From positions 86,231-150,230 of the forward strand of contig JAPOTT010000029.1 in the NCBI GenBank assembly GCA_026709025.1: 64,000 nucleotides of DNA, given 5' to 3'. The stretch is from a bacterium (GTDB lineage Bacteria; Actinomycetota; Acidimicrobiia; Acidimicrobiales; Bin134). Shown piece by piece: positions 1 through 6,507 of this stretch. The stretch's first letter is position 1; every line of letters begins with the position of its first letter. The notes beneath the pieces were generated by a model that was not told where the DNA came from, did no database searches, and saw only the letters and a program-made list of their open reading frames with translations. Both the position numbers and the translations under genes were made by a program.

Positions 1-7
1 CTCAACT

Positions 8-3000
8 TTGTATACGGTATTTAGTGGGTTGGAAGCGAATGTGTCGTATAGGTTCTTTTTCTGGTGGAGAGCTTCGTCTAGTAGTAGTTGGAAGCAAGTG
101 CATCCCAGCAGGGTGTGTTCCACTATTGCACCGCCTGTAGCACCGCCGATTACTTGCACGGCTACGGCTAGTTCTGTTTCGATTAGGTGGGGTTCGGTGC
201 GTGGGGCTGTGCGGTATCGGGTGTCGCGGGGCAGTGGTTGGGCCACAGCGTCGGGATCATCTCACACGTTCAGCAATTTATCCGAGTCAACTGCATACAC
301 GGTAAGAGTACAAGGTGGGAACTCCGCGGGTTGGGGTGATTCTGGCACAGCTACTTGTAGAACGATGGCTTCGTTGTTGTCTGCACCAACGGGTTTACGC
401 TGTGAGGCTACTTCGTCTCAGATCAGGTTGTCTTGGAATGCAGTGGCCGGGGCTAGTGGTTATTCGGCGAAGATCCAATTAGTACAGCCGGGTAGTACAC
501 AAACCGATGTTCGTACTAGTGCTACTTCAGCTACTTTTGCTGGATTGCAGCCGTCCACTCGATACTGGGTGAGCGTGTTGGCGTTGAAGAACAGCGAGCC
601 TCAGCAGTTTGCTGGCGTGTATTGCATCACTCTGGTTGCTATTGCTGCACCAACGCTTTCTTGTACAGCAACTTCAAGTAGTGTAACTGTATCATGGCCG
701 AGGGTAACGGGTGCCACAAAATATCGGGCCAGAGTGGGTGGTGGGGCTTGGACAGCAGATTTTGCTTATACGTCTTATACTTTCACTGGTTTAGCGGCTG
801 GCGTAATGCATACTGTTACTGTTCAAGCGGGCGCTAGCGGTGGTTGGGGGAGCGCAGCTAGCGTTCGGTGTGTAACCGCAGCACAAAGCGTGTCTTGCGA
901 TGACACCACCTCTAACAGCGTTTTATTGGAATGGGACGACCGAGCCGATGCGGATTACTGGTATGCGGCCATATCGCGGGGAACCGGCTATTTCAGCCCC
1001 CGATATGCAGATCGTCAGATAAACGAAGCAACATCTACGCTGTTTACAGGGTTAGATAAAGACACCCGTTACGTAATGCTGCTGTGGTGGTATGACGGAA
1101 GTAATTGGAACCAAACCATTCCGCCTCCTGAATGTCACACTAAAGCCTTAGACACCCCGAACGTAACAGAATATGCTACGGGCGGGAACACCTTAAGTAT
1201 TCAGTGGAACCCTGTAGATAGGGCACAGCGCTATCAAGTGCAAATTACGCCTATAGGTACTAGAGTAACTTTAGGTACCTCACAGAACAACCAGTGGGAG
1301 ACGGTAGTATCCACCGGTACCTTCCACACCTTCACTAACCTTGTCCCCAATACCCAATATACGGTACGACTGAGAGCTATCAACGCCCAAAACCAAGCAA
1401 GCGCAATCGCTAGGTTAGCTCGTTATACCTCACCTGCTCGCTGCAAAGCAGTAACCGCAACAACCATAACGTTAGCTTGGCAAGACCCTGACGAGGATTA
1501 TCAGTGGCGTATAAGGCGTAAGGTTGGCGAGAACCAGTATACAAATACTAGTATTCATGCAAAGGGAACTAGCACTGAGACTACTGTGACAGGGCTTACT
1601 GCCAACACCGAATACTCTTTTTCAGTAGAGCGTAGGGCATCTAGCACAGAGCCGTGGGAGCACCAGAACCCGTTCCCGCATTGTCACACCTCCCCTGCAA
1701 GCCCAACTATCACGCAGTGCCCACAAGCCGCTGATGTAGATGGAACAATACGATGGACACCAAACGGAGCCCACTACTACCGCATCACCCTCAACAAAAA
1801 CCAAACAAATCCTGTGTGGATAATTACTAACTCAAATGCACATACCTATTCCAATCTCGTCGAAGGAACAACATATAATATCGCAGTCCAAGCTAGAAAC
1901 CCACAAGGCTGGTCCACTTCTAGCGATTGCAACATGAAAACACTACCTCCTATACCAAACAACCTCATCACAGGCACTGGCACATACTACTTCACAGAGG
2001 GAACAATAAAGGGTGTCCTCTATGCCGCCGAAACTGCAATCAACGACTATGCCACAGCTAACCCTAGTACATGGAACTCTTGCAAAAGCACAATAGATAA
2101 AACAAAACTAGCAGCCATAATGCTATCAATTCCTCCAGGCGAAGTTATCAATCCACTCACTTCAGCCACAGCAAACTCACCCATGACTCTTGGGCGTAGC
2201 GATAATTTTACAATACAAGTAATAAAAAATAGCAATGGAATTAAAGCAAGCCTAAACCTTCGTACTTATTCACACACTACAGTAGAAGATTATCTTAGAG
2301 CTCACTGGAGTCCCGCTGTTGGCCCTTGGCAACTCGATAATCTTGGTGATGATATTAAATTCAACCATGCTGAACGAGCAGATATCACTAAGGGAGGCAA
2401 GATAATTGCTAGTTTTCTGCGTGATTCGCATTGTAGTAATCCGAATGAATATAGCGGGCTTAGGAGTGTCTTAAATAGTCGATGGTATGGGTGTAGTCCT
2501 GAAAAAGAAGTAGAAGATAAAGAAGGAAATAAGAGTAGGGAAGAAATCTTAGACGCATGTTATAATCGCTATATTATAAACTCAAATCGGATATATAGAA
2601 ATGGTACATTAAATATACAGTTAGCTCAAGAGAATTCACAAAAACCAAAATTAGACCAAGTAGATGGTGGCATCAATGAACGAGTTTGTAGGTGGAGCTC
2701 AGATCTAGTTCCGATGCCATGCTATCTGTATGATACCGGTAAGCCACAGGGAGCAGTAATGGACAGTACTCCCAACGGAGGACCACCCACTCACCACAAT
2801 CCTTTCACACCTTACCCAAGTGCTTTTATCTCTTTGACTGAGCCAGCCACTAGTACTAAGTATGCAGTATGGCCTTCTAAGTGGCCCACTTCAAGTAGTC
2901 TAATGCCATGGCCTACAGAAGTCGTATCTGCCAGTTTTGCAATCTATCGAGCAGTTAGGGCTGATAGGTTCGTCCGATGCAGTCCAGGGCACAACCCTAT

Positions 3001-3238
3001 CAAAAATCAAGGAGATAGTGAGGGTACTTGTCATGGTGAAACTTATGCACCTTTTGGGATAATAAAAGTTAAGGAACCCACGGTAGGAGATCCGAATGTA
3101 GAGGGGTGGTTTGATGGTTCTATCCCATATCTGAAGAATGGAACTGATAAAGATTACCATCGCCTTCAGATGGAAGCTTGCTCACAGCATTTTGTAGCTC
3201 AGGTAGCTTTTAGATACTGTTGGTGGGAAGATGTATAG
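8..3238 (+). CDS. Surface/secreted protein with about 8 tandem fibronectin type III-like modules and an unassigned Cys-rich C-terminal domain of about 430 aa. The 5' end probably lies upstream of the window.
   Basis: The frame is open to the window edge and there is no signal peptide. An 85-95 aa module recurs, for example CTATSSSVTVSWPRVTGATKYRARV...YTFTGL...HTVTVQA...GWGS...C, and each module is bracketed by Cys. After about aa 645 there is no repeat and I recognise no motif. Confidence 0.7.
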   Translation: MYTVFSGLEANVSYRFFFWWRASSSSSWKQVHPSRVCSTIAPPVAPPITCTATASSVSIRWGSVRGAVRYRVSRGSGWATASGSSHTFSNLSESTAYTVRVQGGNSAGWGDSGTATCRTMASLLSAPTGLRCEATSSQIRLSWNAVAGASGYSAKIQLVQPGSTQTDVRTSATSATFAGLQPSTRYWVSVLALKNSEPQQFAGVYCITLVAIAAPTLSCTATSSSVTVSWPRVTGATKYRARVGGGAWTADFAYTSYTFTGLAAGVMHTVTVQAGASGGWGSAASVRCVTAAQSVSCDDTTSNSVLLEWDDRADADYWYAAISRGTGYFSPRYADRQINEATSTLFTGLDKDTRYVMLLWWYDGSNWNQTIPPPECHTKALDTPNVTEYATGGNTLSIQWNPVDRAQRYQVQITPIGTRVTLGTSQNNQWETVVSTGTFHTFTNLVPNTQYTVRLRAINAQNQASAIARLARYTSPARCKAVTATTITLAWQDPDEDYQWRIRRKVGENQYTNTSIHAKGTSTETTVTGLTANTEYSFSVERRASSTEPWEHQNPFPHCHTSPASPTITQCPQAADVDGTIRWTPNGAHYYRITLNKNQTNPVWIITNSNAHTYSNLVEGTTYNIAVQARNPQGWSTSSDCNMKTLPPIPNNLITGTGTYYFTEGTIKGVLYAAETAINDYATANPSTWNSCKSTIDKTKLAAIMLSIPPGEVINPLTSATANSPMTLGRSDNFTIQVIKNSNGIKASLNLRTYSHTTVEDYLRAHWSPAVGPWQLDNLGDDIKFNHAERADITKGGKIIASFLRDSHCSNPNEYSGLRSVLNSRWYGCSPEKEVEDKEGNKSREEILDACYNRYIINSNRIYRNGTLNIQLAQENSQKPKLDQVDGGINERVCRWSSDLVPMPCYLYDTGKPQGAVMDSTPNGGPPTHHNPFTPYPSAFISLTEPATSTKYAVWPSKWPTSSSLMPWPTEVVSASFAIYRAVRADRFVRCSPGHNPIKNQGDSEGTCHGETYAPFGIIKVKEPTVGDPNVEGWFDGSIPYLKNGTDKDYHRLQMEACSQHFVAQVAFRYCWWEDV

Positions 3239-5756
3239 GTCTTATTTGAGGCTAGGGATGTTTAGTGGCCAGTTTTCTTTGCCTGGATATATCTTCGTGT
3301 TTCTTTGTTGTCTGGGTATGTTTGCGGGTGGTTGTAGTAGTACTGAGACTACTGAAGTTGCTGAAGCTGAAGTATTGTTACCATTAATTGAGTCGCGTAG
3401 TTTTTCAGATTTTCAAAATCTTGCATCTAACAGTAGTTCTTTGCAAACTCGTAATGCGGATGATGAGGTTGAAGTGGAGAGCAGTGTTGCAAATGAGCCT
3501 GCTGGTACTTCTTCAGTCAGTATTGACACGCCTCCTCCTCCACTGATTGAAGATACAGTAGTTAGTAACTCTGATGCTAACTCTTCAGATGCTGTTGATA
3601 GCTCTGTTCAGGAGGAAGATACTCAACCACTTACACCAGATAGTAATGTACTATTTTTGGATGATCGAACAGAAGAGAATGTGGTGAGGTTGGTGAAGGA
3701 ATCTATTACATTGCGAGATTGCGTGATGCGGGGGGAAATCCATAACTACTCAGAAGATCAGTATGCAAGGGATGTCACAGTAACAGTTGGAGCATTAGAT
3801 GGCAAAGAAAGTGCTGTACGGCACTGGCCTCTTACAATTGAGCCTGGAGAAAGCGCTCCATTTGAGATAGCAATTGATTGGTTTCCTCATAGATATAATG
3901 ATTTACTATATAGCTCCTTAGATTTTTCACACTGGCATAATAACCGTATATATATTGATAATTTGTTTTATAACTATTATAATATCTTTGGCAATATGTA
4001 TTTTGATGTTCAAACCAATTTATCGCTTACTCCTGATATAAAGCGAGCTATTAAACTGAATGCAGATGAAACCGCACCAGAGAACCTGTATCAAAACCCA
4101 TCTCATAATTTTTTAGTGTATGATGAACGAGCTTTTGAATTAAAAGATTCTAGAGGATGGCCTAGATCTGGACGTGATTATACAACTATTACTAAGCCAA
4201 GATTCGATTCGATATTTTCTGAAGAGATGGTACAGAGCAGCCAATTAGATCCTGCATTGATAAATTTTGAACTTTATAAATATACAGATGTATTTTATAT
4301 ACCTTCTCGCGTGTATCCTGATACATATAAGCAAGGTGTAGATGACAGTTTGTCTAATGTTAAGATTTATCAAGCATACAAAGATACATTTGGAAGAGTA
4401 TTTGATGTCCGTGAGCTAATTCCACATTCAATTATCGAAGTAAAAGATGCGCAAGGTTTAATTGTAGATCGCCAATTTAATCCTATTTACAATTTTGATA
4501 ATTATGATATTGCTAAACAAGATACTTACAGTAATAAATATGTACAAGTGTTAGATCGATTTAACTATTTTAAGGCTTCTTCTACTTCTATTACAAATGA
4601 AGAAGCTTTGACGCGTAATCCTGGTGTAGAATCGGTTTTTCTATGGAGTACTCTGTGGGCGGGGGGAGCCAGCCATTCAAAGGCATTTTCCTCTTCAGGC
4701 TTTTCACCAGTAGTTGAGGACTTTAATCCTACTGCATGTTTTTCATCCTGGCCATTGTGTAATTTCGACTTTAGTGTGCAAAGTAATTCTGGAATTCAAA
4801 TTGCAATTCGATCTAACTTTTTTGGAAAGCACAGTAAATGTCCAATTTCTGCTAGCAGCGCAACTCATAGGTATGCTCTTAAAGATAGACAAACTGATTC
4901 TATGATTATTAATACGCAATCTCTTCGAATACAAGATCAAACTATTCGTGGGAGTATTTTTAATCTATCAATGGATAAAACAGCTCGCAACGTTGTTGTT
5001 TCTGTTATTGATAAAGAATCAAGAAAAGTACTTGGGAAGCATCAGTGGTCTCTATCCGTTCAACCTAGAGAGATTGTACCTTTTGAAATTATGCTGCTTG
5101 ATGCTGGCCTGAATCTTGAGGAGATCGTATTTGATATATCTTCTGTATTATCTGAAGATATTGATCCAACAAGATCTTTTCAAATCCAGGAATATGTTTC
5201 TGGTACAGTGTATGGTAAGGGATATAAACAACTATACAAGAGCATTCCATTATATCAAAGCGACTATGAAATGTTTATAGGGGATATTCTGGGAACTGAA
5301 ATTCTGCAGTATCCACCATCTCTTCGCTACACTAAAGACGAGTTTAAGGATATCTATAGAGATATACTTGTAGATAGAGATATGGAACAGTTTGAATTAT
5401 TTAGATTTATAGATTTGTATGCTAGATTGGAGTCTTCGGATCTTCATCCAGAATTAGCAAAGATAGTTGCTAATCAATTTATTGGTAACTTGCACGCATA
5501 TATGGCTATTTTTGATGGCGATAAGGTTGTTGATGTTAAGGAAGTACCGTTATTTACTTCTATTGAGGAACAGTCTAATATTGATCAAAACTTGCTGCTG
5601 GTGGATTCTATTCCGGCACCTAATCGATGGGCCCCTAATGCTGTTAGAATGTTGGTAATCATTCCTTATACCGATGAGGAAGATTTAGATAAGGAGTATG
5701 GGTATCAGGTTTGGATTGGTGGGGCTAATTCAGAATCAAGCGTGTTGGAGGAGTAG
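3231..5756 (+). CDS. Large lipoprotein of unknown function (841 aa) with an internal duplicated beta-sandwich-like segment
   Basis: Signal peptide plus lipobox (LGMFAGGC). The ATG overlaps the upstream stop (ATGTATAG, 3231-3238). The gene is very AT-rich and N/Y/I/F-rich. An acidic/Ser-rich linker follows the lipobox. A roughly 65-aa segment occurs twice (nt 3684-3878 and 4902-5108). Confidence 0.65.
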   Translation: MYRSYLRLGMFSGQFSLPGYIFVFLCCLGMFAGGCSSTETTEVAEAEVLLPLIESRSFSDFQNLASNSSSLQTRNADDEVEVESSVANEPAGTSSVSIDTPPPPLIEDTVVSNSDANSSDAVDSSVQEEDTQPLTPDSNVLFLDDRTEENVVRLVKESITLRDCVMRGEIHNYSEDQYARDVTVTVGALDGKESAVRHWPLTIEPGESAPFEIAIDWFPHRYNDLLYSSLDFSHWHNNRIYIDNLFYNYYNIFGNMYFDVQTNLSLTPDIKRAIKLNADETAPENLYQNPSHNFLVYDERAFELKDSRGWPRSGRDYTTITKPRFDSIFSEEMVQSSQLDPALINFELYKYTDVFYIPSRVYPDTYKQGVDDSLSNVKIYQAYKDTFGRVFDVRELIPHSIIEVKDAQGLIVDRQFNPIYNFDNYDIAKQDTYSNKYVQVLDRFNYFKASSTSITNEEALTRNPGVESVFLWSTLWAGGASHSKAFSSSGFSPVVEDFNPTACFSSWPLCNFDFSVQSNSGIQIAIRSNFFGKHSKCPISASSATHRYALKDRQTDSMIINTQSLRIQDQTIRGSIFNLSMDKTARNVVVSVIDKESRKVLGKHQWSLSVQPREIVPFEIMLLDAGLNLEEIVFDISSVLSEDIDPTRSFQIQEYVSGTVYGKGYKQLYKSIPLYQSDYEMFIGDILGTEILQYPPSLRYTKDEFKDIYRDILVDRDMEQFELFRFIDLYARLESSDLHPELAKIVANQFIGNLHAYMAIFDGDKVVDVKEVPLFTSIEEQSNIDQNLLLVDSIPAPNRWAPNAVRMLVIIPYTDEEDLDKEYGYQVWIGGANSESSVLEE

Positions 5757-5799
5757 CCGGTGCATTTGGCCAGTAGTAGCTGCTACTAGGCTGGTTTAG

Positions 5800-6507
5800 A
5801 TGACCATTCTCACTGCGCCAGCCAAGCTTACGCTTTCTTTGAGTATTACCGGGGTTCGCCAAGACGGCTTTCACTTGCTTGAAGCTGAGATGGTGACCCT
5901 TGACTTGGCTGACCAGTTGGAGATTAGCGATGGTAACAGTGTTGTTATAGCCGGGGCAGATGAAGTGGATTTGTCTGACAACCTCATAACGCGGGCTTTG
6001 GAGTTGGTGGGGCGCAAAGCAAAGGTGACCGTTATAAAGAACATTCCCCCGGGTGCTGGGTTAGGCGGAGGCTCAGCAGATGCGGCGGCTGTTTTGCGCT
6101 GGGCAGGATATAGCGATGTGTGTGGCGCCGTGCGTTTGGGTGCCGATGTGCCATTTTGTTTGGCGGGTGGTCGGGCTCGGGTGCAAGGCATTGGGGAAAT
6201 TGTGCAACCGCTGCAACATATCCCCCGTACTTTCACCTTGCTGATTCCGCCGTTTGGCTGCTCCACGCCTGATGTGTATCGCTGTTGGGATGAAATGGGC
6301 GGGCCAAACGGCACAAACGGTAACGACTTAGAACCAGCCGCCCTGCAAGTGGAGCCTCGCCTCGAGCGCTACCGGCGTGAACTTCAACAAGCCACCGCCC
6401 AAACACCGCGGCTAGCTGGCAGCGGCTCTAGTTGGTTTGTGGAGGGTGCTTACCCCGGAGATGGTCGGATGGTGGTGCAAACTGTGCCTACAAGGCCCTC
6501 AAGCTAG
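5800..6507 (+). CDS. ispE: 4-diphosphocytidyl-2-C-methyl-D-erythritol kinase
   Basis: GHMP-kinase motif IPPGAGLGGGSADAAAVLRW. N-terminal APAKLTLSLSITG. The position upstream of prs/pth/mfd matches other actinobacteria. Confidence 0.85.
   Translation: MTILTAPAKLTLSLSITGVRQDGFHLLEAEMVTLDLADQLEISDGNSVVIAGADEVDLSDNLITRALELVGRKAKVTVIKNIPPGAGLGGGSADAAAVLRWAGYSDVCGAVRLGADVPFCLAGGRARVQGIGEIVQPLQHIPRTFTLLIPPFGCSTPDVYRCWDEMGGPNGTNGNDLEPAALQVEPRLERYRRELQQATAQTPRLAGSGSSWFVEGAYPGDGRMVVQTVPTRPSS

Follow-up and report, generated by a model that had tools for sequence, protein, structure and literature searches.

The stretch of DNA analysed here (the window) comprises 64,000 nucleotides of a contig from a bacterium of the Bin134 lineage in Acidimicrobiia (G000:C18:86231-150230), and opens inside ORF1, a gene for a secreted protein with an array of FN3 modules, which is followed by a lipoprotein gene, ORF2. 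To judge from sequence and profile searches, the last 431 aa of ORF1, hereafter the C-terminal domain (CTD), and ORF2 are two undescribed protein families that form an undescribed two-gene unit. Comparison with relatives indicates that the unit is an old, genus-wide polymorphic locus whose 3′ module, the CTD together with ORF2 (the cassette), is replaced by recombination. Shown below are signals for export, the coupling of the genes and their obligatory adjacency, replacement of the cassette, partners that occur as orphans or in tandem, and an AT-rich composition that is kept up. We tentatively read the pair as an extracytoplasmic effector tip with its cognate lipoprotein protector, in a layout that resembles that of polymorphic toxin systems, a reading to which we give not quite an even chance.

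Genomes, loci and contigs are denoted by G-, L- and C-numbers, G000 being the source assembly (2.2 Mb, 54.5% GC, 56 contigs) and L001 the source locus. Several genomes of the same genus carry the NCBI name Candidatus Poriferisocius sp.

A stalk protein and a coupled lipoprotein

Features of the locus are as follows; positions are those of the window unless a contig is named, and GC3 is the GC content at third codon positions.

2..3238, + strand: ORF1 as far as it lies in the window, open at its 5′ end
G000:C18:85365-89468 (= L001:13135-17238): full ORF1, its start lying 866 nt upstream of the window
2..1942, + strand: FN3 stalk portion of ORF1, part of module 2 and modules 3-10; GC3 0.47
1943..3235, + strand: CTD of ORF1, 431 aa; GC3 0.32; a family without Pfam, PDB or Foldseek match
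3231..3238, + strand: ORF1/ORF2 overlap, ATGTATAG, the ORF2 start codon lying within the last codons and the stop of ORF1
3231..5756, + strand: ORF2, lipoprotein of 841 aa; no Pfam, NCBIfam or PDB match
3231..3335, + strand: signal peptide of ORF2 with a lipobox-like FAGGC, in which Cys35 is predicted to be lipidated
3336..3656, + strand: ORF2 linker, acidic and Ser-rich; predicted disordered; poorly conserved and unalignable; residues 1-141 modelled at a predicted local distance difference test (pLDDT) score below 50
3657..4670, + strand: ORF2 module 1, a small beta-sandwich (aa 150-215), then a larger domain ending WAGGASHS
4863..5753, + strand: ORF2 module 2, the beta-sandwich repeat (aa 558-621), then a larger domain ending WIGGA; the best-modelled part

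The full ORF1 encodes 1367 aa from a TTG codon, or probably 1365 aa from an ATG two codons on. Its N-terminus carries a Sec-type signal (MACCLKGRRWKRFWVVLVAWCVGFGGSALPAEGQ), followed by a G/P/E/V-rich region of about 130 aa and then by the FN3 modules; the signal peptide, the G/P/E/V-rich region and module 1 are encoded outside the window. An initial annotation, drawn from the letters of the window alone, had placed the start of the cassette at base 1, which the upstream extension of ORF1 corrects. It had also counted eight Cys-bracketed FN3 modules, and eight are indeed complete in the window; the Cys pattern, with Cys at both ends of each module and C-x8-14-C linkers, gives ten for the full protein. 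The array is confirmed by Pfam (fn3, PF00041; E 3e-43, 146 bits against a cut-off of 25, six stretches). The stalk cysteines occupy the first and last position of each module (window 1-1942; L001:13600-15942), and the C-x8-14-C loops that join neighbouring modules probably form linker disulfides that stiffen the stalk. A stalk-only paralogue of 859 aa is found at L060 (G034:C1:774473-777052), which shares the signal and N-terminal region and has nine FN3 modules; it breaks off at the point from which the last module and the CTD would follow, has no lipoprotein gene behind it, and declines to a GC content of about 0.50 in its 3′ half.

The Cys/Trp-rich end of about 430 aa in which the annotation recognised no motif corresponds to the CTD (2.3% Cys, 2.6% Trp), which contains CRWSSDLVPMPCY and RYCWWEDV. 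Its family alignment has 47 invariant columns, 24 of them in residues 51-150; among the invariant residues are E67, R85, W122, P124, G127, W129, Q130, D132, N141, H142 and R145, and eight Cys are conserved. In an AlphaFold2 model (pLDDT 74, pTM 0.79) the N-terminal subdomain is helical and the C-terminal one is rich in beta structure. The invariant Glu, His, Asp and Arg, together with a W-x-P-x-V-G-x-W-Q-x-D motif, probably make up an enzyme-like core. Sequence and profile searches of Pfam, NCBIfam and PDB returned no match for the CTD, a Pfam scan of five diverse CTDs gave none at E up to 10, and Foldseek found nothing for the model in PDB or BFVD (best PDB match E 0.85). One paralogue, L052 (G017:C1:3976545-3977834), has a single in-frame TGA within its CTD, as a broken copy or a sequencing error.

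The overlap gaagATGTATAGg was read directly at the ORF1 stop and ORF2 start, as the annotation had noted, and translational coupling is thereby implied. The lipobox also stood: the ORF2 N-terminus reads MYRSYLRLG...LGMFAGGC35, with Cys at that position in 13 of 16 homologues (alignment; pattern-based lipoprotein call), and a signal peptide ending in Cys is present in most distant partners as well. Downstream of the linker, ORF2 is built of an internal repeat (E 1e-10), each module opening with a small beta-sandwich. The structure model is moderate, with pLDDT 60 overall and 80-90 in module 2. A fold search with it returned only generic beta-sandwich proteins (complement/alpha-2-macroglobulin MG domains and transglutaminase barrels) at TM-scores below 0.11, and a PDB profile search only chance matches. 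The fold and profile comparisons proposed in the annotation thus yielded no characterised relative of either protein, housekeeping envelope proteins included.

An exhaustive profile search with ORF2 collected 207 representative proteins, about 25 of which have the full two-module form. The other matches, about 180, are proteins of 300-700 aa with the beta-sandwich alone in common, and no meaningful Pfam domain was found in the 10 of them that were scanned. Two beta-sandwich-only genes were checked in context: each lies directly behind a gene for a large secreted protein ending in the CTD (hidden Markov model matches at E 9e-68 and 1e-43), one of these carriers having Cys-rich repeats in its N-terminal part.

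The two families are obligatory neighbours

A genome-wide scan for the CTD found 44 loci. An ORF2-family gene lies directly downstream in 37 of them and directly upstream in 4; the remaining 3 run off the contig, so that adjacency holds at 41/41 evaluable loci. This check of co-occurrence, which the annotation had called for, upholds its view of the two genes as one tightly coupled unit. The rule spans at least four named Acidimicrobiia groups, and CTD and partner genes overlap or abut at other loci too. All homologues found for ORF1 and ORF2 come from Acidimicrobiia, as metagenome-assembled genomes; among the more distant family members are genomes under the names Ca. Aldehydirespirator(aceae), Ca. 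Poriferisodalis, Ilumatobacter and "Sva0996 bin134", Bin134 deriving from the sponge Aplysina aerophoba (PMC5649159). Within the genus the pair is present in about 40% of the species searched (ORF2 in 17/36, CTD in 15/39), often as 2-4 paralogous copies. The carriers of the CTD vary: N-terminal FN3 arrays, C-terminal FN3 arrays, PPC, Cys-rich repeats, or nothing recognisable.

The partner is also found alone or in series. The complete genome G032 (about 70% GC) contains an intact two-module ORF2 homologue of 808 aa in a gene-sized islet of 46-54% GC, with no stalk beside it and no CTD anywhere in the genome. In G027 an intact ORF2 follows FN3 remnants, the CTD having been deleted. Two tandem partners are present at L062, L082, L087 and L106, and L102 holds alternating CTD/partner arrays.

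The source genome has two further members of these families. A lone single-module ORF2-family lipoprotein of 672-677 aa (G000:C4:158263-160281; GC 0.46 against 0.55 in its flanks) is surrounded by housekeeping genes and has no CTD gene in its vicinity. A second, short-type cassette (G000:C16:246-4739) looks decayed: its FN3 protein is interrupted by an in-frame TAG (ORFs 246-977 and 1041-3269) and ends in a short CTD; a 418-aa lipoprotein comes next and contains another in-frame stop, TAA. A metagenome protein from ENA (P0039, 1181 aa) joins a CTD, three FN3 modules, an internal signal peptide and lipobox, and an ORF2-type module; it would be either two genes in one frame without a stop between them or a true fusion, and it links both families.

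The 3′ module is replaced as a block

Divergence rises along the locus. Identity to G000 is 87-89% for metG, 53-73% for the stalk, 39-62% for the CTD and 25-40% for ORF2. In the stalk tree, loci cluster by genome or by site on the chromosome (L058 with L059; L053 with L054, both of G027; G000 with L051), in conflict with the CTD and ORF2 trees, where they cluster by allele type. In approximately unbiased (AU) tests the stalk sister pairs were rejected on the CTD alignment (p 5e-115, log-likelihood difference 132) and on the ORF2 alignment (p 7e-53), and the type-A clade was rejected on the stalk (FN3) alignment (p 0.0013); these p-values are optimistic, the groups having been chosen after quick trees were seen, although the likelihood gaps are large all the same.

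The comparison of G061 with G004 locates the change. Nucleotide identity is 97.5% in metG and 89-95% in the stalk, drops to 78% and then 63% over the first 500 nt of the CTD, and is lost in the remaining, unalignable CTD; ORF2 is 42% identical at the amino acid level, and nucleotide identity returns to 97% directly past the ORF2 stop. The AU tests, this profile and the GC3 change point described below agree that the 5′ body stays constant and that the 3′ cassette recombines, the latter as a block in which the partner gene beside the tip (41/41 loci) is replaced together with the CTD (G061/G004).

A proposed effector with a lipoprotein protector

In the arrangement we propose, ORF1 would be exported by Sec, and a rigid stalk of ten FN3 modules would end in the disulfide-rich CTD. 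ORF2, translated in step with ORF1, would be tethered to the outer face of the cell membrane by its lipid anchor and the linker of about 110 aa, and its two modules may bind the CTD. The CTD would be the effector and ORF2 its cognate, immunity-like protector, the activity and target of the CTD and the protective role of ORF2 all being inferred. Homologous recombination within the stalk, which is conserved, and in the flanking DNA downstream would then swap the CTD and ORF2 for other alleles. The orphans, the tandem arrays, the adjacency, the gene overlap, the block replacement, the GC3 change point and the extracytoplasmic nature of both proteins, with eight conserved Cys in the CTD, support this effector/protector reading. 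The initial annotation had offered an adhesin or a toxin with a partner; this range of readings stands.

In Rhs loci the tip and the ORF behind it are AT-rich and the body is richer in GC, as at the locus here. Further likenesses to polymorphic toxin systems such as Rhs and CdiA-CT/CdiI (PMC3482391) are an unvarying 5′ part that serves export and presentation, a 3′ cassette that recombination exchanges along with the gene behind it, the effector-then-partner order, and partner genes that occur as orphans (G032, G027, G000:C4) and in tandem arrays (L062, L082, L087, L106, L102). Alternating and tandem arrays have been described for toxin-immunity cassettes by Zhang et al. 2012 (PMC3482391).

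Several observations weigh against an effector/protector pair. The stalk bears no unrelated alternative tips: only one CTD family was found on it, plus truncated stalk-only paralogues, and matches at 63-82% identity to the ORF1 N-terminal region all carry that same family, barring contig-edge or broken copies. Unlike polymorphic toxin systems, in which one body carries many unrelated toxin domains, the tips here thus form one homologous family. The partner, a lipoprotein of 400-880 aa with one or two modules, is far above the usual size of an immunity protein. The domain is sometimes not C-terminal; in some relatives it stands ahead of the FN3 array, with the lipoprotein gene on the upstream side, again unlike classical polymorphic toxins. 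Pfam, PDB, Foldseek and hhalign searches recognised no toxin, hydrolase or other fold, there is no known junction motif (VENN, PxxxxDPxGL, LXG/WXG), and neither protein has homology to any toxin or immunity family in Pfam, NCBIfam, PDB or Foldseek searches. At L053 the CTD and ORF2 belong to different clades, which is awkward for a strict cognate pair; breakpoints therefore also occur inside the module. In view of these unlike features, we describe the pair as working like an effector/immunity cassette and not as a member of that family.

TelC-TipC of Streptococcus intermedius offers a second comparison. TelC is an LXG substrate of the type VII secretion system with a lipid II phosphatase fold. 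In that pair, as predicted here, the site of effector action is extracytoplasmic and the protector is displayed on the outside of the membrane; unlike TelC, the CTD would be exported by Sec on an FN3 stalk, and neither protein has homology to TelC-TipC.

A possible docking pair

Fibrillar adhesins combine stalk repeats with an adhesive domain of recognised type and an anchor to the wall, such as LPXTG. ORF1 resembles them, and the fn3 proteins of sponge symbionts (PMC11706023), in being a secreted protein with a long FN3 array from sponge-associated Acidimicrobiia; unlike them, it has no recognised sorting signal and, despite the FN3 stalk, no known adhesive domain in a Pfam scan, and it carries instead a hypervariable end domain with a dedicated lipoprotein.

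In the main rival explanation, which we regard as rather unlikely, ORF2 would be a membrane anchor and the CTD a docking domain by which the FN3 stalk is kept on the cell. Such a fibre would be used for adhesion to the sponge matrix or for cell-cell recognition, and the fast-evolving pair would be a lock-and-key interface under host or phage pressure. ORF1 has no other anchor, its C-terminus lacking LPXTG or any other sorting motif and ending CWWEDV, and the lipid anchor and predicted disordered spacer of ORF2, about 110 aa, should be long enough to cross the wall. Gene coupling would suit matched amounts of the two proteins, and the CTD occurs at either end of FN3 arrays, as a docking domain could. 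The statistical enrichment of fn3 proteins in sponge-symbiotic Actinobacteriota (PMC11706023) is likewise in keeping with such a fibre. Against this, G032 retains an intact orphan ORF2 without any CTD, and it is not obvious what use an anchor would be without its cargo; partner genes also occur in tandem arrays; the hypervariable part would be the buried anchor end and not the exposed stalk; and the invariant polar residues of the CTD look more like an active site.

A wall-remodelling enzyme as an alternative

A self-directed wall-remodelling enzyme with a lipoprotein regulator, standing as a positional analogue of rpfB, appears improbable. The cassette lies inside the metG-tatD-rsmA-ispE cluster in five species of the genus, and the order in M. 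tuberculosis and other actinobacteria is metS-tatD-rpfB-ksgA-ispE. By eye only, the CTD also resembles soluble lytic transglycosylases (SLT, PF01464) and Rpf (PF06737) in having a helix before an invariant Glu and then a G-x-W-Q-x-D motif. An SLT/lysozyme-like CTD (PF01464, GH23), suggested by LAAIMLSIPPGE...GPWQLD, was rejected: hhalign of the CTD profile against 13 Acidimicrobiia SLT domains gave probabilities of 0.1-0.2%, and no Pfam, PDB or Foldseek match was obtained, the fold comparison being a weak test given a pLDDT of 50-63 around the motif. The analogy with rpfB was set aside as well, the CTD having no Rpf match and Rpf-type genes being present elsewhere in 40/40 genus genomes, with or without the cassette. 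A housekeeping role in the wall does not fit, because the cassette is patchy (about 40% of the species searched), often multi-copy, and hypervariable.

Neighbourhood and composition

The gene order in G000 is metG-tatD-rsmA-sm1-sm2-[ORF1-ORF2]-ispE-tRNA-prs-rplY. Across the five species the cassette occupies three different slots of this neighbourhood, as exemplified by the following positions in relatives.

Upstream of metG: cassette in G004, G061 and G034
Between metG and tatD: cassette in G012
Upstream of metG: decayed copy in G027

No direct repeats flank the cassette, and no integrase-sized ORF lies between the flanking housekeeping genes; an origin from a mobile element was discarded on these grounds. 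In G034 a 39-aa fragment resembling the metG N-terminus (62% identity; L050, G034:C1:584007-584123) follows directly after ORF2, about 1.4 kb before the intact metG, and may be the scar of a past rearrangement at the cassette border.

The sharp compositional contrast that the annotation had estimated by hand counts for the first 5.7 kb was reproduced in 400-nt windows: GC is 47-54% over positions 1-2000, 30-46% over 2000-5800, and 52-62%, mostly 55-60%, thereafter. ORF2, at a GC content of 0.368, is the lowest among 1064 long ORFs of the genome. The foreign composition that the two genes were thought to share holds only in part, the CTD and ORF2 being AT-rich and the FN3 stalk near-native: GC3 in G000 drops from 0.47 in the stalk to 0.32 in the CTD and 0.26 in ORF2, whereas the neighbours metG, rsmA, ispE and prs have 0.55-0.62.

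The same break recurs in relatives regardless of backbone GC. High-GC relatives have a GC3 of 0.87-0.89 in housekeeping genes, 0.74-0.86 in the stalk, 0.40-0.49 in the CTD and 0.36-0.47 in ORF2; the corresponding values in the low-GC hosts (G000, G012) are 0.47-0.62, 0.47, 0.32-0.34 and 0.17-0.26. GC3 in relatives falls from 0.84 to 0.44 at the FN3/CTD junction, and the maximum-likelihood change point coincides with the end of the last FN3 module (MKTLPxIP junction) in 7/8 high-GC loci. Within the type-A clade the GC3 of the module tracks the host, at 0.17-0.34 in the two hosts of low GC and 0.39-0.49 in those of high GC, and trails the backbone by about 0.13-0.50 (mostly 0.3-0.5). GC is normal in the short-type paralogous pairs of the same genomes.

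Since synonymous sites must be saturated at 36-62% amino acid identity, the low GC of the module is maintained and not merely inherited from a donor; we infer that its AT-richness is kept up in place. A possible cause is that diverged alleles, being unable to recombine internally, escape GC-biased gene conversion. Silencing of the AT-rich module by an Lsr2-type protein found no support, no Lsr2 (PF11774) having been found in G000. The initial annotation had read the 5.7 kb as a recently acquired foreign island; extreme as ORF2 and the CTD are as compositional outliers, a recent arrival from a low-GC donor is very improbable, given that five species carry the cassette in the same neighbourhood, that neither flanking repeats nor an integrase-sized ORF between the neighbouring housekeeping genes was found, that every homologue found is within Acidimicrobiia, and that the GC3 of the type-A module follows the host backbone yet stays below it despite saturated synonymous sites.

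Just upstream of the window, between rsmA and ORF1, lie two small genes, sm1 and sm2 (67 aa and 101 aa; L001:12545-13075 = G000:C18:84775-85305). The end of sm2 resembles a RelE/ParE-type toxin by eye (VYEMSW...HIVWLRIGSHDIL), with no Pfam match at E 0.001. Both genes (78% and 74% identity) likewise stand behind rsmA in G061, whose cassette is located elsewhere, and sm1/sm2 are therefore not part of the cassette.

Implications for sponge-associated Acidimicrobiia

Taken further than the effector/protector reading itself, the CTD may have a novel fold, that of an extracytoplasmic enzyme or a recognition domain, and ORF2 may stand for a new class of large lipoproteins whose two modules recognise it specifically. 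The pair would make up a self/non-self system, for kin discrimination or interbacterial competition, particular to sponge-associated Acidimicrobiia, and the AT-richness would be no foreign mark: it would be the equilibrium of balanced, mutually unalignable alleles that escape GC-biased gene conversion. We put this forward as a conjecture, and a doubtful one.

Sponge symbionts cannot, to our knowledge, be cultured, and ideas on their interactions with one another and with the host rest largely on "eukaryotic-like" repeat proteins, fn3 arrays among them. One class of such fn3 proteins carries a hypervariable, recombining end domain with a dedicated lipoprotein partner, and two protein families and a gene-pair rule (41/41 loci) are now defined for it. 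The locus is also a clean case of a low-GC signal, usually read as recent horizontal transfer, that is maintained across species of differing backbone GC. A hypervariable tip with its partner points to competition or recognition between bacteria over simple mimicry of the host.

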